NCBI GenBank assembly: GCA_973895155.1
Contig: OZ316895.1
Location: forward strand, 21,588,558 to 21,652,557
Reading direction: 5' to 3'
From: Marsupella aquatica
Lineage: Eukaryota > Plantae > Marchantiophyta
Length of the DNA stretch: 64,000 nt
Shown: positions 3,854 to 62,946 of the stretch, one piece after another
How positions within the stretch are numbered: the stretch's first letter is position 1
How the letters are laid out: each line of letters opens with the position of its first letter
Translations under genes and position numbers: made by a program
Notes under the pieces: model-generated
What the model was told of the DNA's origin: nothing
Databases searched by the model: none
The model's input: the letters and a program-made list of their open reading frames with translations, nothing else

Positions 3854-6638
3854 CTAGCTCACTTGAGTAATCCCGTTCCTCTGAGCTTCCTGGGATGCAT
3901 TGAACGTGGGGTTTACGATTGCTGGCCTCACTTCTGTGGCGGAGGCTGAGTTCGACTTTTTCCCTACATCAGAAGGGCTCAACAGAATTGATGGCAGCTG
4001 TGGCTGCACATCACCGCCGGACAGCGGAAACGCACCGTTCTGCAAAGAGGACTGCCTTTGTAAGGTAACCTGCGGCACCTCCTGAGCATTTTGACTCACC
4101 GTTTGAATGCCTACGGGGGGATTGTTCTCAGTTGCTGCTGATTCTACATGTTGCAATTCCCTTGCTGAACCGGCGGGCGGCAGAGGAGCAGGATGCTTGG
4201 ATTGACTGGCCAAAAGTGTTTGAGAGACGAGAACACTGAGTTTTGCAATAGTCGACATACGATCTTGATCCCCATGTTCCACTGTCGGTTCATCTGTACG
4301 GACCTTCTTGTGAGCCGGCTCACCTGCTCCTTGATCTTGCCCTGTCGCAGTTCCTTTAGTTTCTGGTGGGCCGGATGGAGGGTCCGTACATGTAGTGACT
4401 GTGAGAAGTGAAGTGGATTCGGGGACACCTGAAAATTCTGCTTTCGAAACACCACCACCATACATATTTTGGGCCTCAATGATCTTCTGAAGACACTTGC
4501 CTTGTGCTTCAATGGAAAGCTGCAGTTGCCTTTGAAACTGCATAATGTTCAAGACGCTATCAGAGACCGGCACAACTCACGTACAGCTATCGCACCAAAC
4601 TCAACACGTCAAGCACTGGAAAAGATGTTTCCATACGAATATGCAACCATCACACCACGCATAAGGATAAAATGTACAGCTTACCTCCAATTGCTCATGG
4701 AGTCTCTTTTGAACTTCTAGTTGCAGACGCAAGGCTTCTGTCACCTGCATGCCACTGCAGATCCCGAAAAAAATTGTCATATCCCTCATTTTATATTATC
4801 ACTACACTTCTCCACAAATTCCAAACGTAAGTTGACGTTATCAACAACATTGCGAGACTCGTTCGTAACGCCTACCCATAATAGCAGACAATAGAATCCA
4901 GCATCTGCATTCCTCCTCATAGATTTGGTTCCAATTTTTATTTAAGAACTACCAAGTGCGGATGAGAACTTACGCATTATGGTCCAGAAGCTGCATAATG
5001 TCCTGCTTTCTTCTCTTCTCTCTCGTCGTTTCTTCAGATTCTGGTGGATCCCTTGCCAGCCTATATTTCTACAAACATCAAAGGTGAAAAAGTTGAGAAA
5101 TGCGAGCCAATCCAAGTAAACCGTCTTCGCTGCATTGCATGCCCAAGCCAGTGAACCTGAAGCAGATTCAGAAATGGATACCTGAAGGTGGCTTTTGACA
5201 TGGTATATAGTGAGGCCATCCACTTCCATTTCTCTCAGTACACCCTTTGGTGTTGCCTCTGTAAGCCACGGCAGAAGAAGTATAAGTACATCCACCTGTA
5301 ATCAACTGCCTGCAAATAGCTACGGTTCTATATCTATAAGGAGCATTCAACTCCCACACTCTTGTACGTGCGAGCATAATCGAACGCAAAAAAATGTCTC
5401 ATTTTACACGTGAAAGAAGCGTTGTTCACCAGGATGCTAAGGAACTTCACTTACTATCAGCACCGCCAAGATGGGCGACACCCTCCACAAAGCGTTCATG
5501 AAGCTCAGGTGTCCATCTCAAACGTTGCTTGGCCGCAGCGGTTTCTGATGAACGTGGAGCATTTTGTTGTGGTTGCGGAACAATACCTGCTGAATTTTGT
5601 CCTTGAGACGGACCCCCTACGGCTCCAATGCCTGAACCTGGATAGTCCCTAGAGTAGACAGGCTGCAATACACTAGTTTTGTCAGTATACGTCAGCACTA
5701 GGCAAACAGCAAGACCACAGCGCCCTTCTCTAATAGCCCCGGAAACTGTGAAGAGGAAAGTGAGCGGTGACCGACTTCGACGAATTCTTCTCCACGACTC
5801 TCTAGCTTCTGTTCTCAACACATTACAGTCATTCGCTCAGCGGAAGTGTCTGTCAACTAACTCCAAAGAGGGGGACGAGGTCAGAACGTACTCGATGCAT
5901 GGGTTCATCAGACAAGTCGATAGGGTCCAAATCGAAATGCGTATAATACTGTGTGATGGACCCATTTGGTGCAGGTGGTGCAGGCTGTGGCCAACCCTTC
6001 AAATAGTCATCTCCAGCCCCAGTTGCGAAGGGCTCATTTCCTGGAGATTCCACTATTCCACCATCACTGCAATCAGTGGGAGACTCCAAAAGCATCTGCC
6101 AGGGATCTCGCAATCCATCTTCCACATCTTCTTTGTTTGAGTAAGGGTGCGTCGGCCTCTCCTCCGCCGGGTAGAGCGGTTCAGCGAGGGCCTGATTGAT
6201 GGCCTGAGGTTGTGACGGAATGGGAAACACAGGAGCGTGTGAAGATGAAGAAGAGGGTGGAGGAACGAGAGAAACTTGATTGGGGTAAGTGTGAGCGGAA
6301 GCATTGGGTGAGGGCCCCGGATTCAGCACAAGCGCTCTAGACGTTTTCTTGGGACCACCCTGGTGCGCAATCAGGTAGCCCCCCGACCCTTGCTGTGGCA
6401 TCGGGGGAGACTGAGGATGAGGATATGACTGAAGGTGAGATTGATGCTGACCGGAAGGCGACGACACTTTGTTGTTGGGCAAATGTTGGCCGTAATTAAA
6501 GAGCGAAGGAGGCATAGCGAACGGCGGTGGCTGCTGGCCCCAGTTTGATTGCACCTTTAGCCTTCTCATGGCATCAAACGACGGAGGGAAGGCTAAAATT
6601 GGCCTCTGACTCTCCGCTGTGCTGCCCCAATCCAGCAT
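3854..6638 (-). CDS. PHR1/PHL-like MYB-CC (GARP) transcription factor. Exons approx. 6638-5862, 5662-5455, 5258-5182, 5068-4974, 4754-4685, 4537-3854
   Basis: The spliced product contains [33 protein letters not shown]...LTIYHVKSHLQKYR (SHLQKY MYB) and GMQVTEALRLQLEVQKRLHEQLE|FQRQLQLSIEAQGKCLQKIIE (LHEQLE coiled coil). All junctions are GT-AG and keep frame. The 3' end could instead splice at CAA|GTGAG near 3862. Confidence 0.93.
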
Positions 6639-8404
6639 GAATCCTGACTCTTGTCACCTGTTTGTCGCTGCTTCTGCTCAGAATTCCCCCGACGCCGCCC
6701 TTCCCCTTGTTTGCCAGTTTAAAATTAGAGGGCCTGTAGCACTCACCAGCGAAGAAGAAAAATAGTAGGACCATAAACGTCGCTTCCCAACCTTCTTCAC
6801 AATGTGAACTGCTTAATTCCCTTTCTTCTTACGTGTGCCTTGCAACAGACTACCACGGAGGCGAGACTACTCCCTTTCCCTCTCAGCAGAAAATTCCTTG
6901 CAAATGTGTAAAAGGCGGCCCTATCCTGTTCTCCTCGTCCCCTGCAGAAGATTCCTGTCCTCGAATGATAAAACTGCACTGCTTCCAGCCTACCTAGAAA
7001 GAGGTGAATTTATCCGTCGACCCAAAAGAAATTTCCGCTCCGCCGCCTTTTAGGCTACACACCTCGAATTCGAATCGCTAAGCCAGTGCCCCTCCCTGTC
7101 GAGTCCTTCCTTCCTTCCCGTCTTAAGTGCACGCCTGACTGTCGAGTCCGGCCAGCTGTCTATCCATACAACGCACAACTATATCCTCTGTCGAACTTAC
7201 TTCGTTATCGTCCGTCCTGAGAAACACGTATATCTTACGTGCGCTCCAAGTGGAGTACAATTTATAGTTCACGCACGGAACCTAAGCCTTATTGATATCG
7301 TCGAGGTGATAACCTGTCGAAGCTGGAATGACTATCTCTGCGACCAGACACTCTCTCGGCCTTCCTGTTGAGCAGCTGAACTATGAAATTGGGGAGCGGC
7401 AATATGCAATAATTCCCTACGCCGCCCGTGACCTTCTCGAGGTTCTTCTCTTCACCTGTTAATGAAATCTCCGGTGCGTCTTGACCCAAGCTGCGGAGAC
7501 AAGGCCTTCTCTACCGTTCTCCCGAGAGCTTGTAATTGAGCACTGCGAATAATCGGCCTCCAATTCAAAATTCCAATCAACAATCTGCAATCGCCATGCA
7601 GCTCCTTCGCAACTACGAAAACCTTACGACCCTTGCCCCACTGCAAAAGCAAAACCGACCTTTGCTCTCTTCGTCCGCCTCCTCAGATGCTCCTTCACTT
7701 TCCTCCCTTTCTTTTCTCACAACAACAGGAACTCCGGAATAACGGGCGGACGTGCGATGATTACTGCTCAGTGAGCGCCTTCCTCTGTCTGTCTTCGTCC
7801 AGAATGTTTATCAATCAGGAGGATGAAAGTAGACCTTATCCACAAACCAGACAGAATCCCTCGCCGGCAAAGTGAGCCTCCTTCCTGCCTGCCTCCCTTT
7901 CGTGGTTCCTCCCCTCACCTCGTCTTCGCAACTCTAATGTTCCTGCTTGCCGTCTGTCCCTCAGCTCACTCTCTCCTTCTCCAGCGGTCGTCGCTCACTC
8001 CTTAAAAAAAACGCCCAACCGACCTTGCCTGAACGTTCTCTCACTTGAGCGCTACCACTCCACCGAACCGAAGGAACACACTACAGCAGAGCAGTGCAGG
8101 GCTTGCGATCCTCCAACAAAGATGGAACCGTAGAGCGTATCCTGCTGACCTCCTTCCCTAGCTGGCTTGCCGATTCTTTCACGAAACCTCTCACTCCACT
8201 CCAATGAGTCCAACAATCCAACCCAATCCAATTTCAATCCAATCCACTCCTCGCCTCGCCTCGGTCAACTTCAATTTCGGCAGAGCAGCGAGAGGGAGAT
8301 GACCACGAGGAGGGGAGAGGATGATTAGAAAAATGAGGACGATGACAAAATTAACAAGGCCCACCCCCGCGCCCGAAGAATCCCCATCGCCTGCATCAGA
8401 ATTC

Positions 8405-14810: not shown

Positions 14811-15529
14811 GAGGAAGGAACGAAGGGGGGTGACTGGGTTTTGTGGGTTCCGCGCTATCCTAAACTTCGTGAAGTACGCCCAATGTCGCCTTGACCCTCT
14901 CTCCAGATATTAGGTACAGAGGAAGTACGGCGACACGGTGGAGTGAAAGAAACTGAAGATAGGAAAAGACTGTACTCTGTAGGCTGTAGAGATAAGAAGG
15001 GGGGGAATCTCATTTTCTAAACAAAAAAAGTTTGTCAGGTGCGTTTAGGGCCTTGCATTGCCTATGTACTTTTCCCCGCTAATGAAAGGGCTTTATTCAT
15101 TCTAAAAAACCAATAGAATCAGTCAATCAGAAAACAGAAGGCAACAAAAATGACCGACTAAAGGGCAGTGGAATAGTCAGGATACTGACCATTTTTGTTT
15201 TATCCTTTTTTAGAGACTAAGATTACTCCCCGATTCTGATCATTATTATTTTATCTTTTTTGGATTCTAAGATCACGGTTGTCCTGATACTTATCATTTT
15301 TATTTATCTTTTCTGGGTACCAACATACCTGATCATTTAAAAATATCTTTGACGGATTCCCACACTGGTCCGATACTGATCATTTAAAAAATAAAAAATT
15401 GGATACTAATATTATTATATGAGTCGGCACTGATCATTCTTATCTTGTATTTTCTGGATATTAGTCAGCCCCGATAGGGATAGTTGTAACACTCATTTGC
15501 TATTTTTTATACTAGATCCCATCAATAGA

Positions 15530-15792
15530 GGAGAGAACAATAAAATTGTCACCAAAATATATTTCTTATTCATATTCCTTGAATATTAATGAACTGATAA
15601 AAAAATTATCATCATTTTAATAATAATATATAATATATCATACTTTTTTTTATGTATATTCCTTGTCATATGTTATAGTGACCATGAAGCCCATTTTTTA
15701 ATGTAAATAAAAATTATGACAAAAAACATATATGTTTATTGACATAAATCATAATCATGATTTTTCTCATCCACATGATGATCCATGGAGTA
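15530..15792 (+). repeat. Copy of the AT-rich repeat family also found at 24780-25095 (-) and 49710-49960 (+)
   Basis: ACAATAAAA.TGTCACCAAAATATATT..TTATTCATATT and CACATG.TGA.CCATGGAGT are shared between the copies. Confidence 0.7.
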
Positions 15793-16290
15793 CCCTGGGA
15801 GGATGGTCTTTGAGCAGGGTTTCTGCAGGTTGCTTTGTCTTAGTATATTTTACACCTTGACAAGCTGGTTGCTTTGGGGGATGTCCATATTCTGGTATTG
15901 TGTTTTGTTTGTCATCCCTCCTATCTTCTTCGGACGGTCCTTCCCACTGCAATGTTTTTGTCCAACAGGTCCAAGCGGGTGTCTATTGCACTTCAGCAGG
16001 CACATGCCTTCACTATTCTCTTTAGGGGAGAGGCTCTTGTATTTTGGGCATCTAGCCGGATTCCATTGCTTGACCCTCCTAAGCAGTTTATGCCTCAGCG
16101 TTATTGGCAGGCTCTTCAGTTTACATCAGTTTACAGATAGCTAGGGTTTAGATTTGTGTGTTTGTGTGTTTTCTTGTGCCGGGCTCCTTCCCTAGTCTCT
16201 TGGCTTGTTGGCTTTCTTCTTGTTCTCCCTTGATTGTGTTTTTGGCCCTTGGGATCATGTGGCCCCGTTGGAGGCCTTCTGCTTTTTGGC
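15793..16290 (+). mobile_element. Degenerate 3' end of a non-LTR retroelement, possibly of the RLE (CRE-like) type
   Basis: The peptide ...KRVSIALQQAHAFTIL resembles the C-terminal 'RxSxALQRxNA' motif of RLE-bearing elements. The tail CCTCCTA.GCAGTT...CAGGCTCTTCAGTTT...TTGGGATCATGT recurs at 34795-34960. Confidence 0.4.
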
Positions 16291-17197
16291 AGTCTGAAAT
16301 AAATACCTCATCACATGTGCTATTTAGCTAAACATTTCAACTCAATGCCCCTGTCCCTCACCATTTTGCTGAGTGGACAGAAGGGCTTTATTCATTCTAA
16401 AAAACAGAAGGCAACAAAAATGACCGGCTAAACTACTAAAGGGCACTGTGGACTAAAGGGCAGATCAGGTCTGGAACAGGATGAAGGATTTTTGTAATAA
16501 TGGTGTTCATCTAGAGCCCTCACAGGCTCACAAGCTCAGAAATCATTGAGTGGAGAGTTAAAGGTTTGCACCAAAACTGACTTGCTCTGGCCAGAAAAGT
16601 TTAGGACGGCATGGAAAAGACAACTGCTGTGAGTTTCTTTTTTCCAATTCATGAATAATAGGGCGTCTCAGACCTAGGGGCCGTGACCCAAGTTACGGGA
16701 AAGCAGTTTTGGCTTTAACTCCAGTTACGACCATGTCTAATGGGTTCGGACCAAAGAGGGGGGCCTGGGTTTGATCCGTCTCGTGAGGCCCATGTTACGG
16801 GAATTGGCCCGCTCAAACCTGGACGAATTTTGCCAAAACGTCCGCAACGGCGAGGCAGAAAAAGCGTCCACGATAGCTCGCGAGGAATTCCCGGCATTTG
16901 AACTCGAAATCCTCCTAAAATTTAGTGTCGTTTTTGCAATCAACATCAATGCAGATTTGCGAGGTCCTTCGAATGGCGCCCAGGAAATTCAAACATGGAC
17001 AGGAGGCTCTGTTGGAAGATTTGATAAGAGGATGGGGCAGATTGGGTATCCCATTGCTCATTCTACCAGAAAATCTTAAACTTCAATTGCAATCTGGAGA
17101 GTCAACACCCAGAGTCGATACTTGCACTGTCGAAGTCGCTGCTCTCTCCGGAATCGATTATGTCATTGTCGGTGTAGCTACAACGAACGTCACAGAC

Positions 17198-18568
17198 ATG
17201 GCTCCCAGGAACGTTGTAGGTGCTGCTGGCACAAGTGGTGTTGGAGGTGGAGAGAAGTTCAGGCTGAAACATTCTGACTATGGATTGATTGTTGATTGGC
17301 TGGAGAACCCGGACAACTTCAACCTCATCCATGGTGGTGGAAAGACAAAAATCCAGGGGCGTCCGATGAGCAGGGCTACGATTTTTAAACAAATGCTTGT
17401 TGTCTTGCAGGCACATAACTTCCCGAGGAACATTAGCGGGCCTAATCTGAACAAACGATTTGCAAGGTATGTTGCTAAGTACAAGGAAGCTCGTGAATTG
17501 AAAATGTCAAGCGGAGGTGGTCTAACAGAGGAAGATTTTGTGGCTGGCCTGACTCTGGAGGACAAGCTCGAGAGGATGTGTCCTCATTTCGAGAGGATGC
17601 ATGCTCTCTTTGGAAGCCGGCCCAATGTGGCACCTCGAGGTACTGGAGATTTCGGGATAGACGAGGATGAATTCACTAGTCATGATCCACATGAAGATGT
17701 ATCCAACCTGCCTGATGCTGCGCCTGTTCCTCACTCGCCTACCATCATCCTCACAGGTACTATTTCTACAGAAGTTTTGCTGCTTCTTCTTGAATGAATG
17801 GATTTCATTTGATAGACTGAATTTGCCTGATTTTATGTTTGTTCTGAATTGAATGTAGAGGGACCGGCAGGTGTTGATGATGGACTGGAATTCAATTCTC
17901 CTGAATTCTGGGAGGAGGACCTCATGGACATTGGCACAGGGCATGTCCCCCATGATTCAGCTTCTAATTTCCCTGGTAGTGCTAACAGTCCACAGACCCC
18001 TGGGACTGGGCGAAATTCTCCCAACTTTGGTCCACCCAGGGACAGTGTTAGTGGTTCTTTTGGAGGTATGCCAGCACACACGGGAACACCACCTGTCACA
18101 CCTGTGGGGACTAGAGCAACTCCCAGACAACCAAATGTGGGATTGGCTAACAAGGAGAACCAACCACCTAAGAAGACACCACCAAAGAAAGTTGACGACA
18201 AGCAGCCTGCACCTCCAAAGCCCAATGTTGCACAGATCTATGCTGAGAGGCTCTTACAGAAGGCTGACTACAAGAAGGAGCTCCTCCAAACCCGGGAGAA
18301 GTGGAATATGATTGAGCTAGATGAGAAGAAGCAAGCTCGACTTTACTCATCAGCAGAAGCAGCAAAACGAGATAGGTTAATGCGGAAGCATCAACTGCAC
18401 ATGGAGAACGAAAGTGCGTCTAATGCTGAGAAGAAGGCCTGCCTTGATCGCTACCACCAGTGGCAGATGGGAAGAGCAGAGAGAAGGTCTCAGATGTTGA
18501 TTGAGTTGTCCCGAAGTAACAAGACTGATGAGCAGATTAAAGCTCTCATGGCTCTCGTTGAGGACTAG
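17198..18568 (+). CDS. Harbinger partner protein (Myb/SANT- or trihelix-like DNA-binding N-terminus, coiled-coil C-terminus). Exons 17198-17756 and 17859-18568; start may be upstream at 16973
   Basis: Two long ORFs are joined in frame by a GT-AG intron (ACA G|AG GGA). The N-terminal domain DYGLIVDWLENPDNF...LNKRFARYVAKYKEAR..SGGGLTEED..LERMCPHFERMHALFGSRPNV follows the pattern of Harbinger ORF1 proteins. The C-terminus is charged and helical. Confidence 0.8.
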
Positions 18569-18960
18569 TGTACTTGGATGTACTAGGGATATCTGTGCTT
18601 AGGCATGTAGAAGTATACCTCCAAGGATGAATCAACTTGTTTAGAACTTATGAAGCGACATTCAGAGGTTTGTTGTAGCACAGGTCAATGCAGCTTAGTG
18701 CAGGCACAGCTGACAGTGTTTAAATTATAAAACACGTTCTACACTAAAGAAAATCTGTTTGAGTGTTTCTTGTCATTCTTCTCCAAACATAACATGCTCA
18801 AGCAAAATTTTCTTGAATGTCTTAAACCGAACACTTTACTAAAATTTTGACATGTAACAATTAAGAATTTGCATGCATCACAAGCAGGAGTATGAAAAAC
18901 AATTCCACTTTCATTACACACTAACTTCAAATGTTATAATTCATGACCCACTCTAAAATC

Positions 18961-20468
18961 CTATGTTGCAACAGGCCACAGACATCCCCCTGGCTGCCTG
19001 TGAAATGCTAAGGCAGTTGCCATGACAGCCTGCAAGCGAGAACTGGGATTTGCAACTGGACGTCTACGATTTGGCCTCTGTTGTTCAGGACCTTCCTCCT
19101 CCAAAGGCTCGGACCCTTCAAGGATTATTTCTTCATCCTCCTCACTCCAGAGATCATTCCTGCTAAGCACATAGTTGTGCAATCGTGCACAAATTCCTAT
19201 CCACCTAACCATCCACAAGTGTTCCTTGGTGGTTTTCAATTGAATTCTAATTTCTTTCAGAGAGAACCAACGACTTTTTAAAACACCTATGCAATGCTCA
19301 TTTGTAACTCTAGCTTTTGCCACACAGAAGTTGAAGTCCTCCTTGTCCACGGACGTATCGTATTTCTTGAAGGCTGCAACAAAATACTCAGACGCCTGAT
19401 ATCCAGAATCACCCAACAAGTATTGCCCCTCCTCAAACAAGTCCTGACCATTCTCGCTGCATCTTCTCCACAACTTGCTCCGTTTCAAGCAAGTGAGATC
19501 AGACACTGATCCAGGCATTCCTGCTCACCAACAACACCAAGTGAGTAGAGTGACAAAGCTTGGCCACTTAACTAAATAGCAAATTTTGACTATATATGCT
19601 GCTAGTGATAAGAAAGGGGTAGTGTCCATACCAGTATAGAGGTACAAGATCTTGCGCCTTTCATCACAAACTACTTGAGCATTGATCGAGTATCGACACT
19701 TTCTATCAAAGTAACACTCTCCTGAATCCTTTGGGCGTTGGGAGAGTGGGATAAGTGTGCCATCGATGAGGCCAACACACCCAGGAAACCCTTTCTCTGC
19801 AAATTCATCTGAAATCCGAGCTCGTTCCTGTTTGTCTGGCCACTGCAAATGCACAACCAAAGCGTCCTCCAAAGCCTTGAAACATCGTACAGTGAAATTG
19901 CACAATGACCCATTACTGACACCCCAAGTGGGAATCATATGATTCAAGCAGGCCCCATTTCCATCATGGCCAAGCCTGTCCAAGGTGACTGCCAACTGCA
20001 AGCAAACTGGAGCCTGCTCATAAGGAGAATCATTTATAAAAACCGGATGGGATTCAATCATATTCACCAGCGTAAAGAAAGAGTCCTTGTCCATGCGCGT
20101 CATTTGCCTGAACAGCTTAGGTGGGAGGTTTTCAAAAAAATTCTCAGCAAAGTCCCTAGACTTAATAGTCATAGGCTTATCCACAAAATACCGAGTATTA
20201 TCCATGACAAAATACAATTCCATGATTTCAGTAGGCTTTGGCATAAAATCAAATGGTCACCTCCAACCTCAATGTCACAGGAGGTTTCATATTCCTGGTC
20301 TGATTTACTGACAGTATCTTGTGCATCACTAAACAGGTCCAATGTTGAGGAGTTTGAGTCACTGCTGAACTCGACACTCTCACTACTTGAGCTGTCCATG
20401 AGAATGGACATGTACAGTTGCTCCTTCACTTCCCTCAACACCCTTTGTCTGTCTGAAACACGTGGCAT
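18961..20468 (-). CDS. PIF/Harbinger DDE transposase (HARBI1/DDE_Tnp_4 family). Intron 19521-19631; one apparent 1-bp frameshift near 20252
   Basis: Motifs FRQMTRMDKDSF (HTH), GFPGCVGLIDGT (D1), RKCRYSINAQVVCD, YTG|MPGSVSD, YLLGDSGY (D2), FNFCVAKARVTNEHCIGVLKSRW (E) and ICARLHNY. The N-terminus MPRVSDRQ (20468) is in a different frame from MPKPTEI (20244). Confidence 0.93.
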
Positions 20469-20669
20469 GGTGAACCCTAGATTCGCAATAAACATGAAGT
20501 AGTGAGCAAAAAGATCAATGCAAGTGTACCCAATAATCCAGTCCAAAGAGACACCAACATGTCATAATATTTTGCTTTCAGGCATACAATTGTTGCAAAT
20601 GAAGACATCACTTGTACTCAATAACGTAAATCTCTGCACCAAGGTAATGCTTCTAATTCACGAACATAA

Positions 20670-21362
20670 TTACTGGACGTCATCTAAGTTCAATTCTTCC
20701 TGCAGCCTTCTAAGAAGTTTTGCGATGGCTTTTCCAGACACAGTCGGCCTATCTATTGGGCTGATATCGGGAATTGAGGGCCTCAAAGTATTATCAACAG
20801 TAGGACTGGATTGCTGAGCATGTTTAGCATATTCACCTGGTGTGCGACTCCGACCTAAGTGCAAAGAGAGGGGCTTAGGCACTCGGGGTGAGCCCTCCAC
20901 AAAGCTAATCCTCTTCACATGGATTTCATGATCAGAAATTTTGAAGATAACTTCAACCACAGGTGTGACTTGAGTCAATGACAGAACGTAGGCAATCTGC
21001 TCAGATTCTGAACAGCTTGGAAACTCACATGGAGAGCAATCCAAGACAGTCTCAGCTGCATCCCATATTTTAGCACGGATGGGCGGAACCCCTCCATAGA
21101 CAGCATCAAAGAAAATAAGATGAAATCTGAATTTAGGTTTTCCAGACAACGAGGAATGCTGACAGTTGTGACCGAACTCTAATGACTTCCCACATAGACG
21201 TCCTGTTGGCATTAGTGCTGGACATGACATGTACATGAATTTTCGAGGATAAGGATTTTCAGCAACAAAGTTTGCAATGTAGGCTAGTGTAGGCACTTGA
21301 GCAATCGTATGTCCATTCACTCTGTAATCTTCAACTTGAGCTAACGATGTGTACAACACCAT
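20670..21362 (-). CDS. ~230-aa protein resembling the RPA70 C-terminal (DBD-C) zinc-ribbon OB fold, located inside the Harbinger
   Basis: Uninterrupted ORF: FMYMSCP..CGKSL..CQH..KPKFRFHLIFFD..IRAKIWDAAETVLDCSPCEF..VEVIFKI..IHVKRI. This parallels the RPA70C pattern Y.ACP..C.KKV..C..C..P..RY.L...D..W...FD.AE..LG..A.E. A plausible 5'UTR intron lies at 21388-21490 (GTGAGT..TTGCAG). Confidence 0.7.
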   Translation of the reverse strand: MVLYTSLAQVEDYRVNGHTIAQVPTLAYIANFVAENPYPRKFMYMSCPALMPTGRLCGKSLEFGHNCQHSSLSGKPKFRFHLIFFDAVYGGVPPIRAKIWDAAETVLDCSPCEFPSCSESEQIAYVLSLTQVTPVVEVIFKISDHEIHVKRISFVEGSPRVPKPLSLHLGRSRTPGEYAKHAQQSSPTVDNTLRPSIPDISPIDRPTVSGKAIAKLLRRLQEELNLDDVQ

Positions 21363-21658
21363 TGCACTCAAAAATAAATCCTCTGCCCTGCAAAACTACG
21401 AAAATAATAATCACATGAATTTGTTCGTCTGATTCTCATATCACAAACAGTGTAAACCGAAGGGCACCAGAATGATGGACGGTAACTCACTTAATTTTTC
21501 ACCCTGCTTCAAGCTTCAAATGCAACCTCAAGCTCAATCCCCAGCTCAATCTCCTCAATCGTCTCTGCACTGACGCCCTCTTCAGTCCTATATGCCCATT
21601 CCAATCTCCCGGGTCAAACTGAGTGTGGGCGCAAAAGAACTTCAGCAACTCTGTTGCA

Positions 21659-21742
21659 GCGACGTCCACCTCTCCAACAAAGCGACGTCCACCTCTGTTG
21701 CAAACAGCTGCTGCGACGCCGACGTCCACCTCTCCAACAAAG
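21659..21742. repeat. Short internal repeats near the Harbinger right end
   Basis: CGACGTCCACCTCT(CCAACAAAGC) occurs three times. Confidence 0.85.
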
Positions 21743-23239
21743 CTTTACCGGCAGTGACTTTCGACAATGCTCGAAGAAAACCAGCGCCGAATGAAAGCGA
21801 GATATGGTGGAGAGGGCCGGGTTCAAAATAGTAGTGTCGGGAGCGGTGTCCCGCAAAAACAGGGAAAGACTACTATTCCCTGTTGCGGGAACGGGCAACG
21901 GCCAATTTCCGCGGCCAAATGTTAACGACGATGTTTTAGGTGTACCATTTGAGTTACGGGAATGTCTTTAACTGCAGGGTTAACGACGATCGTTAAGTCT
22001 GCTTTTCCTAGGTCTGAGACGCCCTAATGAGTAACAGACAAAGTGGTGGTGCAGGGAATGTCCAGAAAAAGCTATTCACTCACTACCAATTTGTCATTAT
22101 AGCATGTTCACTGTGGAACATGCTTCATTTTTTGTCTGTGATGATGTGTAACTTGATGTGATTTGTCATTTACTCACTCATTCATGGATTACTCAATCTG
22201 TTTGCGATGCAACTTAGCTCAGAGCACATGCAATATTGCCCCATGACTGATTGTTCTTCCTGTGCCGTTGTCATTACTTGTGCCCATTGGAAGCGTTGAA
22301 GTGTCAAGAGTTGAGGATGGCATGATTGGGCCAAATGATGGCAAACAAGAATAGTATTTTCTTTTATTAATTTTGAGGGAGGCATCTGATCAATTTATTA
22401 TATGGAAGTAAGGGTTCACAATTCAAAAATAACAGATGTCATTATGTGATTGGTTTAGTTTGAAAAACCAGAACTGTCCCACCCCATGTTGGGTGCCTAC
22501 AATTAGTGATCCCCTGAGATGGCACGCACTTATGTGCCACTGGCATCTCTAGGCAACAAAGAAGTCGGGGACAAAAGTTTAGGAGAGTGATTTGCTCAAT
22601 TGTGTATTACTTTTCACCTCACACCTACAAAGAATTTTTAGCATGCTGTTGACGTAGAGAATTAATCCATGGACCCCCATGTTCATCCAAGGAATGTGTG
22701 TTTAATGAAGTGAAATCAATTTTTAACAAGGCGGTAATTGACGGTTTTGAGTCTCCTTATGGTCTTGGTGTGTGCTCGTACGAAAGAAAACGCTCAAAAG
22801 ATAGAGGAGATTTATCAACGGAAGGTTGAATATGGAGGATTTGAGTTTTTTGACGGTTTTTGCTTACACATTGGAGAAATCGTGTTTCTATCATTCATGA
22901 TTGATCGTTTGTGAGTTACATGCATTGAGCATTACTACCACAAGACAGACTGGAGGAAAACACTTAGCTATTGGCAAAAGAGCGTTTGTCGATTTGGTGG
23001 GAAGAACACACAAAATGAACGAGTCATCGCTTCACATGAAGGATTTGTAGTTTTTTATTTAAGAAAGCTATGGTGTGAGAGGGAGACCAACAATTGTTTT
23101 TTTGACATAGAGGTTGCATTTGGCATCAACCTGTGTTCAGAGTGAGCTTCAGTTGAAGACTAGAGGAATGCGAACAATTCAAGCCCGGAAGCAAGCATTG
23201 TGGACAAGGGATGACAACGTAATCAAAGAAATCAATTTT

Positions 23240-23795
23240 CAACGGCTAAGTTTGTGACGGTGATGAGATTGTGATATTTCTTAATTGAGAAAGGGTTTCC
23301 AATGAGCCTCAGATTGACAAATTTTGTCAAGTTCCAAATGAGTTTTTGAATTTCTTTGTCTTTCCAATGAGTGTGAGTATAAGAAATATTAATCATGAGT
23401 CCATGAATTCTTTTAGATTTCCAACATTGAAGATTTCCAACATTGAGTCCGACATTGACAAATTTTACGTCAGATTTTGTCACGATGCTAAAGAGATCAT
23501 GAGGTTTTCAATCTCTCTAGCTTTCTAATGTGTGACATTGAAATTATTCGTCAAAAATTAGGGAGATCGTGAGTATCTGAATTTCTCTAGCTTTCCAATG
23601 AACCTAACATTGATAGATTTTGTCAAGTACTAAGGAGATGATGAGTTTTTAATTTTACTTTAGCTTTCCAATGAGTGTGACATTGAGAGATTTTATCAAG
23701 ACAATACTAAAGAGGTCACGAGTTTCTAAATCTTGATCTTGAGTTTTCCAATGAATCAAACATTGACAGATTTTATCAAGTACTAAGGAGATTGA
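23240..23795. repeat. Degenerate tandem array, ~58-60-bp unit, about 9 copies
   Basis: Recurring TTTCCAATGA.....ACATTGA.A.ATTTT.TCAAG...AGAGAT.ATGAGTTT. Confidence 0.75.
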
Positions 23796-24739
23796 TTATT
23801 TAGTTTTACAATGTGAAGCCAAAGGGGTTTTAACTATGTACATTTCTATTGGTTGGTTTTTTCAAGCTTGCAAACAATTAAAAAATACAATCATTTTGAT
23901 ATAAAGCACTGATATATCTTTGACAAACATCAAAATGGTAACTTTATTTTACTAAATGACATATCTCCCTTTGTATTTTGGTTTTTCTTACTTTCAATAT
24001 TTACGGCATGACGCCCCAAAAATTATGTTATTTTTGCCACAAACAGGAATGTGCACATTTGTTATTGTTAAAAGTAGGATCATTCCTGTTTGTGGCTGGT
24101 TGTGGTGATGTGGCGCAACCTCGTGGCAGGGAATTTGCAAGAGACCTCTCATGGGGGTCCGTAACTACTGTTTTTGTTTGGAAATTTTGGCGCAGCCCAG
24201 GATATGTAGAGAATCACTTATTGAGTGCAAAATGTAATCTATGCCTTATCGGTTCCGCTATCTTCAGCTTCGTGAAGTACGCCCATCTAGTCTTGACACT
24301 TTCTCCAGATATTATGAACAGAGGAAGTACTGCAACAGGGTAGAGTAAGATCAAGAAAAGCAGGAAATTCAGATAAAGATTAGATAAAGAAGTGGGGAAC
24401 CTCATTGTCTAAACCAAAGTGATCCCACCATTGCTGAACCTTGATATTAAATCTTAAATCAATGTACCCAAAACCTCCTGGGTCCCAAGTAACACTTTTC
24501 ATTTTGGGTCCTTCAAACAAATAAGTCCCAATAGTCAATGTTTTGTTTCTTTGTTTTGGTTAAGGCCTTGATTCCCAAGGAGAGAGCAAAATTTAGTTCA
24601 AAGCACGCCAGAAATATTTAGGTTTTACATCTCTTCCCAACCAAGAAACGAGACCAATGCCAGGGTGGTAGTGGTGGTAGCCATTATTTACTACAGGGCA
24701 GCATGACAGAACTCAATATTAAAAAACAGTTATCTCATA

Positions 24740-25095
24740 GTATTGGAGAACATTAATATTTCATCTTATTTATAAGAGTCAACTACAAGCTAGAGTTGGG
24801 GCCTAGGCTACTAGAGTGAAGCCTCTAGGCGGTAACTCCATGGCTCATCATGTGTACGGGAAACACATGACTATGACGTATGTCAAACTATAAACATGCA
24901 TGCTTTTTGTCCTGGTTTTTATTTACATTAAAAAATGCGCTCTATGGCCCCACCATAACATATGTGCAAAGAAAGAGGGATGTGCATAGAAAAGAATATT
25001 ATATCTTATGTACGATTATTAAAATGATAATATTTATCATTTCATTAACCTTACTATGAATAAATAATATATTTTGGGGACATTTTTGTTGTATT
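24740..25095 (-). repeat. Inverted copy of the AT-rich repeat family
   Basis: GGTAACTCCATGGCTCATCATGTG and AATATATTTTGGGGACATTTTTGTTGT are reverse complements of sequence at 49716-49956. Confidence 0.7.
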
Positions 25096-26449
25096 CAGGT
25101 TCAAAGAAGGGATAGTCAGGGCTAGTGACTCACAAAGGAAGAAAAAATTTACATAAATTTGCTACACATAAAAGAGTGATAAAAATATGAAAAGCGAGGG
25201 GGTGTAAGGTACTGACAGGAAGGTTGGATCATTATGATTGTAGTCTAACGAGATAAGGTGATACATATTGCCACAAGCAATGTACTGTACTCTACTCTAT
25301 TTTGTGACTAGAGGAGATAAGGCACTGCTCACATAAATCTGAATTCAGTTAAATTCTGTCATGCTAATTGCTTAGCACGGTGGTAGAAAGGCTCAACGTG
25401 GCTGGGAGGAGGTCAAGTGTTCAATGCTAGGCGAGTCTACTTTTAAAGAGCCTTGCAACTAGGACTTATAATGTGGGGTACTCTTGCAACCTGAGAGAGA
25501 CTTGAAAATGAGTTTCCTAAAAAAACAAACAGAACCTTTAAAGGGGTTCTATGTATATTTAAAACTTAAGGGAAAACAAAGAAGATACTCTGCTAAAACA
25601 AATTAAAATCTAAATACTAACCTCTGAAACATAGCACTCCTGAGCAGGTCAGGTGGATTCGCCAGACTGCAGCCTCAAACAATTCTGTTATATAGCAAGT
25701 ACAAGGCCACCGGCAGGGATCGTTACAAACAAAGAGAGATCAGAACTTTAACTGGTGACATAAGCTAGCTCTAGAAATCCCCGACCAGGGAGGATGGGAC
25801 CATTGACTTGGATCCATTCCTAGCCCAAGTTATTTAATTGGCGATTGCGGGTTCCATGTGGCAGTTGGTTGTTATGTACTCTGGACCCTTGGGTGGTGTT
25901 TTTCTTGGTTCCCCACTAGTCTTTGCTGCGGGGTCCTTGAAATATTAGAATTTTGATTTTTTAAAAGAGACAAAGTATGAAAAAGAACTGGTAACTCAGT
26001 ATTAGTGACAAAAGATGGCCAGCAGAGATTTGAATTATCAAGTTGTTAACAAAATATTTTTCAAAGCAAGTGGTGACTTTCCTTGTGGGTTTTACTTTTT
26101 AAAGATGATATGGTAGAACTTTAGCCTCTTAAATTCTTTTAATGTATTCCTTCTTTCCAATTGAGAAAAAAATTTAAAAATTAAAACTGTCAGCAGTCAG
26201 AGTACCTCTTCTAAGGTTTGAGTTTAATTTGATGGGGATGACAAAAGCATCTCACAATTTTATTATGATACACTGCATGTTTACTTAAAGAGCCACTAGC
26301 CACGACAAAAACCTGGTTCCACAGATTTTAATATTTTTTCCTGAAAATTGTGGAGCAAAGTCTCCGGGTAGAGGAGAGAAATGTCAAAAGGGAGACGATT
26401 TGGACTATTCTACTTTTATATGGCCACTGATGGTTTAATGAATCCCTTG

Positions 26450-36345: not shown

Positions 36346-36868
36346 CTGGGAGCTGACCGAACAACCTCGAGCTTTGCTCGATGAAAACACCTCTCGAGTC
36401 GTAATGTCCAGGATTCGTAATTCTCCGATCCCGACGCAGGATGCAGCAATTCTCAATGACTTTATGGCAATCATCTGATTCTCTGTTCGATGGTGATCAT
36501 TTTGACACCCGATTTCGTTGGAGACATTGGTGCTTTGTGGCGTTCAAGTGGTGTATTTGTGGCTCTTAGGTTTAGGCGGAGCGGAAGCGATTTCTTCGAA
36601 GGTATGCAAAGATTATCGCGGGCTAAGGGAACATATGGAAGCCCGATGTGACGGCGATCGTTTGGGAATGTGATGTGATTGGTAATTTTTGTGATCTGTG
36701 GAGCTGGAGCTGGAGCTGGAGCTGAGGGATATGGAGTTTTTTTCTCGAGGTCGAGGCTGGGAGCAGGTGAGTTCTTCAAAAAGTGGTGAAATTGTTTTTA
36801 TGGAAGGATTAATCACGACACGCACCAGGAGATCAAGGGGGCGAAATTGAGATAATAATGAGGATGAA

Positions 36869-42220
<5,352 letters not shown>

Positions 42221-50869: not shown

Positions 50870-53800
50870 TGTTTTTTTCCGTTCATAAATAAGGGCCACG
50901 AAAACCCCGCGGCAAGGGGAAACAACCAGGCCATCAGACAACCATCAACCAAATAAAGCACCCCCTGGGAGGGCAAGCAGTAAGCAATAACAACACAATC
51001 AACAAGAGAGCCTAAAGCCAATGCACAACCAAATCCCCAGGACCTGTAGGGGAAAGCCAAAATGCAAGGGCTTTGCAGCCTAGGGACAACAACAATAAAG
51101 GGCCTTCCACACCAAACATAGTCTTATCCGGGGGAGGTCCAAACATGGCTTTTATGTAGCCAGACCATTCTTTTCTGGTTAAATATTTCTTTCACTCTTA
51201 TCAATCTAGTCTGTCGCCGCCCCGGAGGCAAGCACAAACCATCAGCAGTCACATGATCAACCACTTCTGATAAAATGAGTCTAAGGTCAAATTTCCTACA
51301 GCCGTTGGCCTGAAACATCTATGTATTTCGCCCCAACCAAAGAGACCAGAGGATCTGATAAAATACAAATAGTTTAGCCACCCTCAACTGATCTTTCTAG
51401 ACAGTCAAATCTTCCATCACTAGCAGCTGATCCGAGTAATCAGTGAAGGTGCCAAGGAAGCAACCAGCTCCCAGGGCCCAACATTTTCTAGCATGCACAT
51501 GCTGGGTAAAAAGGTGGGGAATTGTTTCAGTGACTCCAATACACAACTTGTAGTGTCCATCACCCTTGCCAATGCGAGCAACTCTTACCCCAACGAATAG
51601 CCCGAATGCCAAAATCCTCCATATGAATGTCTTGGCTCGGGAAGATAAGTCAAAACCCCACATTCGTGCCCAGTTTGTGTTCCATTCTGAATCAGTTTTG
51701 GTGCAACCCCAAGTCCGGTTCAGAGTGGCATAGTCATCAACAGCATGGCGAATGAGTCAAGGAATGAGTATGTAGGCCCTCCGATTGTTAATCTTAAAAT
51801 CCTTCAGTGTAGTCGGTCGGTTCGCCCAGCACCAATCGCCTGGTCCCAGCTCATAATGCATGATGCAACCCATTGTTGTCCTGATCTTCCCAAAAAAATC
51901 TCTAAAACAGTCATTCGCTCTCACTGTGCTTCCTTTGATGTGTTCTAGCACTCCATCCAGATTCCACCACTCATTCGATTCAATGTCCCACAGATTTTGA
52001 ATACACCTAACACCCATGCGACCACATAGAATCGTGACCATAGCATAATCCTAATTTTGACCAGGATTGAAAGCCCTTGAAGCATCTCAGGGTGTCGTTA
52101 ACATTCCATCTCCCTGGCATCACATTAGAAGGCAAAAAGATCAAGTGCGCACAAATCTGAATCCATGCATTCCATAATCCTCTAGTGTATGCCATACCAT
52201 TAAATGAACAAGGGCAGCATAATAGCATCTTGTCTGGGAATGAATACTTATTCTTGCGGATCAATTTGAAATTCTGCCACCCTACCAACTTTAGGTTTTT
52301 TGCAAAAAGGCAGACCCATTTGGTGTGGGGAGAGTCAAGAGCCCCAATGAACCACTTGACAGAAGTGCATCCGAGTGACACCAAAAATCTTTGAATCCAA
52401 GTCCTCCCTCCACTTTGTGCCTAGCCATCCGAGCCCACAAAACCAGAGGTACCCGCTTGCCCCCCTTTGGGTTGTATCCCCATAGAAAATCTTTACAAAG
52501 TGCGATCAGTTTCTTTGCCAAACCCTCTGAAGCCTTTACAAACATTGAGTGGTATATGGGAATAGCCTGTAGTACATGTCTGACTAGCATGGCTCTTCCA
52601 AAAAAGGATAGAAGTTTGTTTGCCCATGACGACAGCCGCGTTCCAACCTTGTCCAGAACAAAATGATGCAGCTGATCGGTCCTCAAATCCACTCCCAAAG
52701 GGGCACCCAAGTACTTATGTATCTCCCCGGTTTTGTTAATACAGGCATCTAGTGTTTGTCAGCCAGTGAGGGATCGATAGAATAGCTAAGGGAATCACTA
52801 CAGATTTCCTCAAATTCAGTTTTGCTCGTGTACCTATCTCGTAGTAGTTTAGCATAGTTCTCCCTCTCTAAAAACTACTCTCAGTAGCCAGAATGAACAT
52901 TCCTAGATCATCTGCAAAAATCTGTAGCAGATTGTTAGTGCCTCAAAAAACTTTAATCCCTAATAACTTGCCAGTCTTCAATTCCGCTCCATAAGATCCA
53001 TAAGTGATTGAGTTGATATGACAAAAAGCAACGGTGACAATGGACATCTTTGTCTGACTCCATGATTCAACCCAATGGTCTCAAAAAGTAGGTCATTCAC
53101 CATTGCTCTTGATGTAGCACCCGTTAATAATGCTTGAACTAGCTTAATAAAGTGACTACTTATCCCTAGTAGATGCATCGTCTCCCAGGTATACTCGTGA
53201 TTAACTCTATTAAATGTCTTCTCAAAATCCAATTTGAGAAACAGAGATTCTTGTTTCCTATTCTTCACCCAATCACACGTTAACCAAGCAAGTGATATGT
53301 TCTCCAAAATATTCCAAGTTCCAGGGATAAACCCTGTCTGCTGAGCATTTGTCAATTTAGGTAGTGTAAGCTTCAACCTATTTGCTACAATCTTAGCAAT
53401 GAGTTTGTATATTGTATTCAGCATAGTCAGAGGTCTCCAATCCTTCAGGACCCGTTTATCTGGTTTCTTAGGGATAAACTTGATGATTCCATCTTTTATC
53501 TCGATAGCCAATTTGCTAGTCAACCAAAAACCCTATACCATATAGCAGTCAAGTCTGCCTGAATGAACTCCCAGCAAGCCCTGTACACCTCAGTGGTCAT
53601 CCCATCTGGTCCAAGTGTCTTATCCAGTGGCAAAAGCCATAAAATCTCTTTTATTTCCTTGCAGTCCAGGAGTTTGTCCTTCCCACATTGGATAGAGAGT
53701 GGCTCGTATGAGCCAACAAAGCTCTCCTTGCTTGCAAAATTGCCCCACTCTCAGCTGCTGAAGGAGCAATAGGGGCATACAATTCTTCACACTATTTGAC

Positions 53801-60349: not shown

Positions 60350-62946
60350 TATAATTATTTTATCTTGTGCCACGAAACCCCATGGCAGAGGAAACAATCA
60401 GACACACAAAATCCGGCCGACCAAGCAGCCCAAAAGTACACTGAGCAATACAACACAGACAACAAAATCAAGTATCCGTAATCAGGCCAAAGGCCCCCAT
60501 CCCGTTAAACTATTTCCCTATGTCACTTGGATTTTTTTGGGCAATCAGCTAGAGCAACATGTCAGTAGTACTTTCCTAAGACTTAGCCAACAGCATCTGC
60601 CTAGCCCGATGTGATCCATATATCTCTATGATTCAACCATACTAGCCTCTCACAGTTAACCAGTTCCTTAGCAAGTAGTAATCTCACTTTCTGGTGGCAC
60701 CTTGGCAGTGTGACCAAACAACAGAACATGATCTACTGCCTCTGATAGATGAATCTGTAATCCATTTTCCTGGTACCATTTACTTGGAACATGTGTTTAT
60801 TGCGCCCCAGCCATAATGCCCACAACATTTGGTAAAGGACCACCATCATTACCCTCTTTTTGTGGTGTCTACCGATAGCACAATCCACCAACCCAATCAG
60901 CCCCCCGAAATATCTAGCAAAGAGGCCTCCAAAGCTAAGTGCACAAAGAGCCCAACATTTATGTGCATGTGTGCATTCCAAAAAAAGATGTGAAAATGGT
61001 TTCCAATTGCCCCAAATAGAGCTTGCATTCTCCATTATCTTGCCTATTCTAGCTGCCCTCACACCAGTGAACAGCCCGGACGCTATGACTCTCCACATAA
61101 AGGTTTTGGCTCTCATAGCCATGCCTGAACCCCAAATTCCAGCCCAGCACCGATGCCATTCCAGCTCAGTCTTACTAGTCCCCCATGTCCTGTTCAGGCT
61201 GTATGTGTCTCCAGTCAACGGCCTAAGTAAGTGATATGATCTCTTATTGGGGATCCTAAAGCACCTCAGAGGAGTTGGGTTATCCGCCCAGCACCAACTT
61301 CCAGGACCAGGCTCATATCACCACTCATAGTATGCAATGTTATACAATGCCTCAATGAATCTGTCTCCTAAAATTCTATGCTCCTGTGTGAATCCCCTTA
61401 GATGTTCCCATCTCCCGTCCAGCCGTTTCCATTCCCCTCTTTCCACAGACTAGAGATTTTGTATACTCCTTATACCCAAACGTCCGCATATAACAGTAGT
61501 TGCATTCCTATCCATATTGCTCCATGCTTAAAATCCTTTCTGAATGCATCGAAGCACATCCCCCACCGACCACCGACCAAGTATCCATCATGCAGGACAA
61601 CAGATCAAATTTAGTCAGAGAAAATCCCAAGCTTTCGAGAGCCCACCTGTATAGGCTAAGCCATGAAGCACTCCAGGATTGCATAGCAGCATCTTATCCC
61701 GAAAAGAATAGTTATTTCTTCTTACGACCTTAAAGTTTGTCCATCCTATCAAAATTTAGGTTTTCAGAAACAAACAGGCCCATTCAATCTCAGGATGATC
61801 AATCGCTCCAGTGAACCATTTAGACAACAGAGCATCTGAGTGATCCCGAAAATCCTTAATGCCAAGCCCCCCCTCCATTTGTGGTCTAGAGATCCCGGCC
61901 CAGGATACCAATGGTACACGTCGACCACCCTCAGCATTGTAGCCCCAAAGGAAATCTTTACAAAGTGCCATCATTTTCCTAGCTAATCCAGTGGATGCCT
62001 TAAGGAACATTGAGTGATAAATGGGATTGCCTGCAGTATATGTTTCACCAGTAGAGATCGACCAGTGAATGTTAGCATCTTATTCACCCACGATGATAGT
62101 CTTCGTCCAATCTTATCAAGTACAATATAGTGTAACTGCTCAGTCTTCAGGTCCACACCGAGTGGGGCACCTAGGTATTTTTGTAGCTCTCCCCTTTCAC
62201 TGATCACACATCCAGTGTCCCTAAGCCACCTCGAAATGTCCCCCAACACAATATAGGGATCACCACTGATTTCCTCAGGTTGAGACGGGCCCCCGTGGCA
62301 ACTTCATAGCACTCAATCACTTCAGTTACCTATTTAAAACTCCTTTCCCTGACAGGGATAAACATCCCTAGATTGTCCGTAAAGAAGCGGTAGCAGATTG
62401 TAAGTGACTCAGAGATCTAAATCCCAACAAGTCTGCCAGCAGCTATCTCGGCATCCATGAGGTCCATCAATGGCTGCATGGAGATAATAAATAACAGTGG
62501 TGATCATAAGGGACAACCCGTTTTAAACCAATCTCAGCTGATACCATTCCATTTAGGTATACCCTGGATGTTGCATTTGAGAGTAGTGCCTGCACAAGTT
62601 TAATGAAGTTGTTGCTAATTCCCAGGAGGTGCATTGTCTCCTAGATGTACTCATGCTCCACTCTATCGAATGCCTTCTCGAAATCAAGCTTAAGAAATAG
62701 GGCCTCTTGTTTCCTATTTTTCAGCCAGTCAAGAGTCAACCAAGCAAGCAAAATATTTTCTAGAATGTTTCTCCCCGGAGTAAATCCCGTCTGCTGTGGG
62801 CTGATTATCTTTAGCAGAATCCCAATCAACCTAAGTGCTAGTATCTTAGCAATCAGCTTGTAAATGGTATTCAACATGGTTAGTGGCCTCCAGTCTTTCA
62901 GCATTCTCTTATCCAGCTTTTTGGGGATAAACTTTATCGTCCCTTC
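60350..62946 (-). mobile_element. Second decayed L1 of a related family, interrupted within the RT by a CACTA element
   Basis: IKFIPKK..DWRPLTMLNTIYKLIAK..LKLDFEKAFDRV, QKYLGAPLG and KTFMWRV. The catalytic motif has decayed to FFTDNLG. The 3' UTR GCCACGAAACCCC..GGCA..GGAAACAA matches 50895-50926. Confidence 0.92.

Follow-up and report, generated by a model that had tools for sequence, protein, structure and literature searches.

The window analysed here, a 64-kb stretch of Marsupella aquatica DNA, contains a 5.4-kb transposon at 16660–22025 with three genes between its terminal inverted repeats (TIRs). The 19-nt TIR sequence has exactly two exact occurrences in the window, at 16660–16678 (+) and 22007–22025 (−), where 0.03 would be expected by chance and none of 100 shuffles gave two. 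The arms are 100% complementary and begin with AG at the outer end. At this single insertion, AAT stands on both flanks (16657–16659 and 22026–22028) as the target site duplication (TSD); if the boundary is moved over by one base, the flanks read ATA and TAA and no longer match. A preliminary description of this DNA had reported perfect TIRs with an intact TSD, and both are confirmed. A 10-bp subterminal motif is present on the plus strand in two copies near the left end (16692–16701 and 16794–16803) and two near the right (21882–21891 with one mismatch, and 21953–21962), so that four of its five matches in the window lie no more than 150 bp from the element ends. By chance 2.0 matches are expected per 64 kb, and 6 of 100 shuffles reach five. 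The copies are likely to be binding sites for the ORF1 protein.

ORF1 lies on the plus strand. Its exon 1 (17198–17756) has an uncertain start codon, with in-frame ATGs further upstream. A predicted GT..AG intron (17757–17858) keeps the frame, and exon 2 (17859–18568) encodes an S/T-P-rich linker and, after it, a charged C-terminal region, for a predicted protein of about 422 aa. The linker, taken as the first 125 aa of exon 2, holds 8 S/T-P sites versus 3.3 in shuffled sequence (p 0.006). The protein has no Pfam match and no significant PDB match. Its Atlas matches to Myb/SANT clusters score only 0.79–0.81, a weak lead towards a Myb/SANT-like protein that falls short of the Myb-like partner first proposed.

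The transposase gene is on the minus strand. Exon 1 (19632–20468) starts at ATG 20468. A predicted 111-nt intron follows (19521–19631), whose position coincides with a break or join in homologs, and exon 2 (18961–19520; PF13359, E 2e-17) holds the motifs for the last two residues of the DDE triad (D and E). The predicted full-length protein is about 465 aa, and the D, D and E motifs of an IS5-like DDE transposase (PF13359) are all found in the translation. The earlier call of a DDE transposase on this strand stands by domain and motifs, but in the window copy a 1-bp frameshift near 20254, upstream of the DDE motifs, puts the N-terminus from ATG 20468 in a different frame from the rest. Near-identical contigs from runs X1, X3 and X4 have one extra base near 20254 and no frameshift.

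The third gene, ORF3 (20670–21362, −), encodes 230 aa in one uninterrupted frame from ATG 21362 to a stop at 20670. It lies about 200 bp upstream of the transposase in the same orientation, as previously described. A putative 5′-UTR intron (21388–21490, −) is suggested by a good GT/AG consensus. GC3 is 0.39 in ORF3 compared with 0.47–0.48 in the transposase and ORF1. As a single query, ORF3 (P0001) had no relevant Pfam match and no PDB sequence match. Its Atlas matches scored 0.80 or below, word-index searches returned only one and three proteins, and a single-sequence model was unusable (pLDDT 36). With a profile of the ORF3 family, the sole PDB match was yeast RPA70C (E 0.0046), and a confident model had pLDDT 87.5. 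In this model, an OB fold with a Cys3-His zinc ribbon (residues 1–157) is followed by a low-confidence S/T/P-rich linker (about 170–205) and a C-terminal amphipathic helix (210–224).

Foldseek placed RPA70C and Teb1 OB-C at the top of the matches to the ORF3 model, the best being a chain of the RPA trimerisation core (1l1o). VIA Z scores were 13.1 for Teb1 OB-C, 12.6 for Ustilago maydis RPA70 and 12.2 for human RPA70C, with 136–139 residues aligned at about 3 Å rmsd and 12–14% identity; the alignments end at residue 157. The first match outside the RPA/telomere OB group is MCM (Z 7.8). POT1C, a protein-binding OB domain, is also among the neighbours (Z 9.8), and a viral fold library gave weak matches only. 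The model shares with RPA70 DBD-C and Teb1 OB-C (PF08646) the OB fold and a zinc ribbon between strands 1 and 2, and the ribbon, with predicted ligands C47, C57, C67 and H69, aligns with that of yeast RPA70C. Unlike them, ORF3 has Cys3-His ligands where RPA70 DBD-C has Cys4, lacks the A, B and N domains, and has a β4–β5 loop of only two residues, a loop that helps clamp single-stranded DNA (ssDNA) in RPA domains. RPA70 itself ends in a helix of similar length, which builds a three-helix bundle with RPA32 and RPA14; in ORF3 the terminal helix is displaced by the S/T-P-rich linker. A homotrimer prediction scored 0.00, but did not use the alignment and left the fold uncertain. ORF3 is thus predicted by modelling to be an RPA70 DBD-C-like OB fold with a zinc ribbon, in agreement with the signature noted earlier from the letters alone. 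The route to PF08646 is less direct: Foldseek and the profile reach RPA70C, but P0001 alone has no Pfam match, and PF08646 is weak in 4 of 63 family members (best E 0.0008), with PF17244 in 6 of the 63.

By sequence comparison, ORF3 belongs to a protein family without annotation that comprises at least 82 divergent clusters, whose phmmer representatives are single-domain and 59–383 aa long. The zinc ligands are C-C-C-H in 50 of the 59 rows covering all four positions. Among conserved basic and aromatic residues (R40, K/R41, Y44, K59, R79 and W/F100), Y44 is kept in 59/61, W/F100 in 60/62 and K/R41 in 54/61. None of 63 family members has a catalytic or chromatin-reader domain. The family tree is star-like, with at least four deep paralogs in Calypogeia fissa. 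Across 51 family tails, S/T-P occurs 145 times against 72–78 in shuffles, with no enrichment of the reversed P-S/T, and 42 of the 51 rows exceed their own shuffle mean. The CDK consensus S/T-P-x-K/R occurs 29 times against 9 shuffled, in 22 of the 51 tails only; the window tail has four S/T-P sites and no full consensus. Among host disordered exons used as comparison, one of three has an S/T-P excess (p 0.03), with P-S/T equally in excess. The C-terminal amphipathic helix appears in many tails, though above shuffles in only 17 of 46 rows; it is found in the close subfamily and poorly kept in the distant one.

Copies elsewhere bear on whether ORF3 belongs to the element. In a sister family about 85% identical, ORF3 sits beside the transposase on one contig. 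Record 25 of run X5 (1396 bp) can be aligned to both genes, showing 43 differences from the 5′ end of the transposase and 47 from ORF3. In a distant family, with 42% identity to the window ORF3 over the core and 69% to transposase exon 1, the ORF3 homolog retains an open 212-aa frame and the four zinc ligands. The longest contigs of the ORF3 homologs P0008 and P0086 measure 5965 and 2983 bp, exactly the figures for the transposases P0138 and P0102; the simulated chance of two or more such agreements is 0.003. From these two size matches, the 42%-identical homolog very probably lies on the same contigs as a related transposase. Such linkage was inferred for one of the 23 non-NCBI clusters examined. 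In C. fissa, four ORF3 homologs are not accession-adjacent to the five transposase accessions seen, the closest pair (P0006 and P0095) lying on the same chromosome 377 accessions apart. Alignment scans found no ORF3 match in metagenome and viral contigs; for the transposase they found nothing in viral and prokaryote contigs and a single locus elsewhere (L001, 1180 bp, 38% identical), which has no ORF3 match. The high-depth, amplified sister form has frameshifting indels in both ORF3 and the transposase, and ORF3-less joints occur among related copies. Four of five ORF3 differences among those listed for related copies are non-synonymous, though conservative. ORF3 is nonetheless highly likely to be a stable accessory gene of the element. 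The preliminary suggestion of a stable third component, not a recent host capture, is strengthened by the family of at least 82 representatives, retention in the sister family and the probable distant-family linkage, and ORF3 is not confined to this copy.

The preliminary description placed the element in PIF/Harbinger. TIRs, the PF13359 transposase and a 3-bp TSD agree with this, but the AAT duplication is of ANT type, and the TWA of the canonical PIF/Pong group (PMC4482050) is absent. Compared with the canonical elements Ping, Pong and Harbinger3_DR, the TIRs, 3-bp TSD and transposase with a partner ORF are alike, whereas AAT, a partner without a Pfam Myb/SANT match and a third gene are not. 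Pangu (Han et al., 2015), or Harbinger2 in Repbase, is described as a PHIS-superfamily group with an ANT TSD, TIRs of 11–40 bp starting AG or GG, and two ORFs in about 3.5 kb on average, the second reported without a detectable known motif (PMC4482050). Our element likewise has an ANT TSD, a short AG-start TIR, a DDE transposase and a second ORF without a known motif, but has three genes in 5.4 kb. This Harbinger-superfamily element is likely of Pangu/Harbinger2 type by TSD and TIR start, an assignment made from descriptions rather than reference transposases; the transposase tree comprised liverwort, Phytophthora and other matches.

Extra genes are already known in this superfamily. HarbingerS, described as akin to Harbinger2/Pangu, carries a SET methyltransferase, and PHISTA a TET/JBP gene and a third protein (PMC12730594), which qualifies the earlier statement that canonical PIF/Pong/Harbinger elements encode only a transposase and a Myb/SANT protein. 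Their cargo modifies chromatin or DNA marks, while ORF3 is predicted to be an RPA70C-like OB fold with no catalytic domain. Diverged RPA-like genes (PHRPA) have been acquired at least three times by Helitrons and Helentrons, and among plants are described there from monocots and dicots only (PMC4683698). ORF3 is likewise a transposon-borne, diverged RPA-like gene, but a lone C-type domain in a TIR/DDE element without RepHel. A nested Helitron fragment, raised earlier as an alternative, was rejected: the 13 CTRR-T sites in 20200–22025 have a best stem of 6 bp, and the element has no RepHel-sized ORF. Recent capture of host RPA1 (RPA70) was also rejected, ORF3 being a single-domain protein of 230 aa as against four OB domains in about 600 aa. 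Three-gene Harbingers and Helitron RPA genes are known, but a literature search found no RPA-like gene in a cut-and-paste element.

What ORF3 does can be proposed with less confidence. On balance we lean slightly towards a role in ssDNA binding at excision or replication. A more specific version, which we hold tentatively, makes ORF3 a cell-cycle-gated accessory under which the donor site is preferentially repaired from the sister chromatid. An expressed ORF3 would bind ssDNA at the excision break, CDKs would phosphorylate its S/T-P linker, the C-terminal helix would find its docking partner in the transposase, ORF1 or host RPA32/14, and repair would be shifted so that the sister chromatid serves as the template for restoring the element. 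In a haploid gametophyte, which has no homologous chromosome, a cut-and-paste element gains a copy only in S/G2. Homology-dependent repair permits replicative transposition of mPing in yeast (PMC10288884). The S/T-P bias common to the ORF3 tails and the ORF1 linker counts in support of the repair mechanism, and the S/T-P enrichment would favour a cell-cycle-linked role over the alternatives. The short β4–β5 loop and the weak binding of an isolated C domain count against ssDNA binding, as does the POT1C neighbour; the window tail without a full CDK consensus, found in only 22 of 51 tails, speaks against cell-cycle gating; and the indels in the sister form, the ORF3-less joints and the sparse linkage weigh against the mechanism generally.

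Several of these observations fit other functions. ORF3 could be a stable scaffold or targeting subunit that binds the transposase/ORF1 complex or chromatin and serves fork insertion, reading of element ends or anti-silencing, as VANC counters silencing of Vandal elements. The evidence for stable inheritance serves this reading equally, protein binding is a known role of C-type OB folds such as POT1C, and the short loop and the amphipathic helix of the close subfamily suit it too, as do the chromatin modifiers (SET, TET/JBP) described as third genes of known Harbingers (PMC12730594). We consider it possible but rather unlikely, since the pattern of conserved basic and aromatic side chains suits a nucleic-acid binder, the C domains of RPA and Teb1, which bind ssDNA, give the best structural matches, and the 63 family members carry no catalytic or chromatin-reader domain.

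The 1l1o match and the similar length of the RPA70 terminal helix, together with the amphipathic helix the family often keeps, would also suit an RPA mimic or decoy. On this view ORF3 would use the helix to take the place of RPA70 alongside host RPA32 and RPA14, either making an alternative RPA or tying up those subunits, and the damage checkpoint would be blunted while the element transposes. This is improbable, because the ORF3 helix is separated from the OB fold, where the alignments end, by a linker of about 40–50 aa, and is poorly conserved in the distant subfamily. Slightly less probable again is a passenger, an old captured host or Helitron RPA-like fragment that does not help the element, its family being maintained in host genes or other transposons. 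The C. fissa homologs away from the transposases seen, the ORF3 indels and ORF3-less joints, the low ORF3 GC3 and the repeated Helitron acquisitions (PMC4683698) point that way. Neutral DNA would not remain open at 42% core identity, which disfavours drift of an old passenger, and the very probable link of that homolog to a 69%-identical transposase, the lack of a CTRR-T Helitron 3′ end with a stem above 6 bp in 20200–22025, and the single-domain, star-like family with its deep C. fissa paralogs also argue against it.

A bolder form of the repair reading, which we consider rather unlikely, credits a clade of liverwort cut-and-paste transposons with an RPA mimic of its own under cell-cycle control. 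That protein would consist of one RPA70C-like domain joined to a linker carrying CDK sites and to a helix for docking. Either by covering the resected DNA at the excision break or by assembling with host subunits into an alternative RPA, it would have the donor site rebuilt from the sister chromatid. Harbinger-family transposases (Pong/mPing) serve in plant genome insertion, where a factor that alters excision-site repair could be useful. RPA-like genes, which rolling-circle Helitrons have recruited repeatedly, are here also carried by a DDE element. The usual account of copy gain by cut-and-paste transposons invokes host timing and host repair; if the repair reading is true, a transposon would steer donor-site repair itself through an element-encoded RPA-like factor. 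This would be the first element-encoded device making DDE transposition replicative, one that would suit a haploid host.

The element occupies 16660–22025 (5366 bp) and is bounded by terminal inverted repeats (TIRs). The 64-kb window contains exactly two copies of a 19-nt TIR, one at each end of the element and each with an AAT duplication next to it, which bears out the preliminary description of a TIR-bounded transposon with a target-site duplication. Two copies of a 10-bp motif lie by each element end and account for four of its five matches in the window. The element carries three genes. ORF1, the partner gene, lies on the forward strand and is predicted to encode about 422 aa in two exons. 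The reverse strand carries the transposase, of about 465 aa, whose two exons are divided at a conserved intron position, and ORF3 (20670–21362), whose 230 aa come from a single coding exon. Three 24-bp direct repeats at 21660–21743 probably belong to the 5′ region of ORF3. A possible splice acceptor at 20478–20490 (−) sits immediately upstream of the transposase ATG, so a donor at 21490 might serve both genes; from these signals, one promoter with alternative splicing from this donor might yield ORF3 and the transposase.

Related repeat pieces flank the element at 14853–16432 and 24256–25113: 15086–15162 is repeated at 16381–16432, 14853–14944 is similar to 24256–24346, and 15516–15739 is inverted relative to 24890–25113. 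A non-coding repeat at 22660–24164 reaches a summed depth of 200–400 times the unique flank in sequencing run X1, and has many loose ends at both boundaries, internal 73–80-bp tandem units and an 11-bp inverted motif slightly inside each end; it may be a non-autonomous element, asymmetric at its ends. A host gene for a MYB-CC (PHR1-like) transcription factor (exons within 3854–6653, −; weak PF14379 match) has the transposon about 10 kb upstream of it. Broken L1-like LINE pieces (52291–56469 and 60733–61317, −) match RVT_1, endonuclease (weakly), DUF4283 and zf-RVT. A long acidic low-complexity exon (36851–37648, +) has no Pfam match; its end looks similar to the N-terminal region of plant GCN5.

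The transposase matches PF13359. In the window copy its N-terminus, from the ATG at 20468, and the remainder are read in different frames. A near-identical X1 contig that covers the position (depth 41.4 of 55.9) contains one extra base, as do contigs from runs X3 and X4, so the window frameshift is a variant or an assembly error; the family likely includes an intact transposase. Named sources of its 43 relatives are Calypogeia, Riccia and Phytophthora. In a quick tree of exon 1 (28 rows, omitting 18 of 45 database rows with fewer than 120 exon 1 residues covered or no exon 1 match), the window transposase groups with C. fissa and other sequences (SH-aLRT 94, under the 95 mark) and Riccia falls outside. 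A liverwort is the probable host. The second gene is present, but its description as Myb-like is a lead only: ORF1 has no Pfam match, and the Atlas puts it near basidiomycete and streptophyte clusters (0.87–0.90), with Myb/SANT clusters at just 0.79–0.81.

A phmmer search of 1.84 billion representatives with ORF3 gave 82 matches at E up to 0.001; 62 were aligned with the window protein, mostly short fragments being left out. The sole PDB match of the family profile is yeast RPA70C (E 0.0046), while PF08646 and PF17244 are matched by 4 (weakly) and 6 of the 63 members. With an alignment-based model (pLDDT 87.5), Foldseek places RPA70C and Teb1 OB-C structures at the top, and VIA-align of residues 1–157 gives Z scores of 13.1 for Teb1 OB-C, 12.6 for U. 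maydis RPA70 and 12.2 for human RPA70C. The Cys3-His zinc ligands are found in 50 of the 59 rows covering them. As modeled, ORF3 is an RPA70C-like protein, and the OB fold proposed earlier is upheld by both profile and predicted structure.

C-terminal to this core, the model has a low-confidence linker and then a helix (210–224). In 17 of 46 full-length rows, chiefly of the close subfamily, the helix is more amphipathic than shuffled versions of itself. The tails of 51 family members together contain 145 S/T-P (72–78 when shuffled), 83 T-P (25–29) and 29 S/T-P-x-K/R (9), with no enrichment of the reversed dipeptide P-S/T. The tails are not near-copies (a score of 60 is exceeded by 21 of 1275 pairs), and 42 of 51 exceed their own shuffle mean for S/T-P. 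The ORF1 linker is similarly biased (8 S/T-P vs. 3.3, p 0.006); of three disordered exons from host genes in the window, two lack the bias and one has an excess of both S/T-P and P-S/T. Window ORF3 has four S/T-P and no full CDK consensus. S/T-P is also used by MAP kinases; judged against the CDK consensus, we infer that the tail sites are probably CDK sites.

The three-gene arrangement is real and wider than a single copy. Contigs near-identical to the window across ORF3 occur in four runs, and X1 depth over ORF3 (37–41 vs. 22–25 in the flanks) suggests more than one copy, depth being a poor copy count. The arrangement recurs in a sister family of about 85% identity, where X5 record 25 covers the transposase 5′ end and ORF3. 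This sister family is apparently strongly amplified in organism B and not A (16936–21400, runs X3–X5), at about 40 times the depth of the near-identical family or more, and its amplified form has an ORF1–transposase spacer 376 bp shorter. Because its depth in organism B is far higher (139 vs. 3–4 in X5) and both ORF3 and the transposase carry frameshifting indels, this form may be a defective element amplified in trans. There are also joints bypassing ORF3 (20601 to 21795, side 27), which may be deletion derivatives or an ancestral two-gene form.

The longest contigs of the distant ORF3 homologs P0008 and P0086 measure 5965 and 2983 bp, and exactly these lengths recur, in that order, for the related transposases P0138 and P0102, indirect evidence from size that the homologs and transposases share contigs; at least two such matches arose in 0.3% of simulations (34 by 10 lengths). 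The distant pair is 69% identical to the window in the transposase and 42% in the ORF3 core, with ORF3 open and its zinc ligands intact. If contig sharing is right, the three-gene layout predates that split. Generality is limited: this probable linkage to a transposase concerns 1 of the 23 non-NCBI ORF3 clusters examined (with the others, 27 of the 82 representatives), most contigs being 1–2 kb and the transposase search narrow. None of the four named ORF3 homologs, all from C. fissa, is accession-adjacent to the five C. fissa transposase accessions seen. The distant subfamily could travel in other elements. A quick tree of the ORF3 family has a star-like shape, long branches and no fewer than four deep C. 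fissa paralogs, a pattern that a mobile gene family would be expected to show.

The element's ANT duplication, short TIR starting with AG and partner ORF without a known motif are features described for the Pangu group (Han et al., PMC4482050), equated with Harbinger2 (PMC12730594); these features make the element a candidate member of this group. A third gene, which canonical elements lack according to the preliminary description, is not without precedent: three-gene Harbingers on record include HarbingerS, which carries SET, and PHISTA, which carries TET/JBP and a further protein (PMC12730594), whereas here the extra gene is RPA70C-like. RPA-like genes are reported to have entered Helitrons on three or more occasions (PMC4683698). 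Full-text searches turned up no paper that describes a gene of RPA-like or OB-fold type within a Harbinger or any other cut-and-paste transposon, though Repbase Reports, subscription journals or supplements could hold one. What appears to be new is the unannotated RPA70C-like putative accessory gene in a Harbinger; three-gene Harbingers and Helitron RPA-like genes were already known.

If contig sharing is right, an open ORF3 with intact ligands at such divergence implies purifying selection, which argues against a mere passenger, a quite improbable reading. A putative role as an RPA decoy is also unlikely, though marginally less so, and one as a scaffold, targeting or anti-silencing factor is possible but doubtful. 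We tentatively prefer a putative role in templated repair of the donor site at the right phase. A liverwort gametophyte is haploid, so the sister chromatid in S/G2 is the sole repair template. Excision leaves a double-strand break at the donor site; for mPing in yeast, replicative transposition through homology-dependent repair is described as possible (PMC10288884). ORF3, as a putative small ssDNA-binding protein, would hold the resected ends for templated repair, and its putative proline-directed phospho-linker and docking helix would fit such a role at the right cell-cycle phase.
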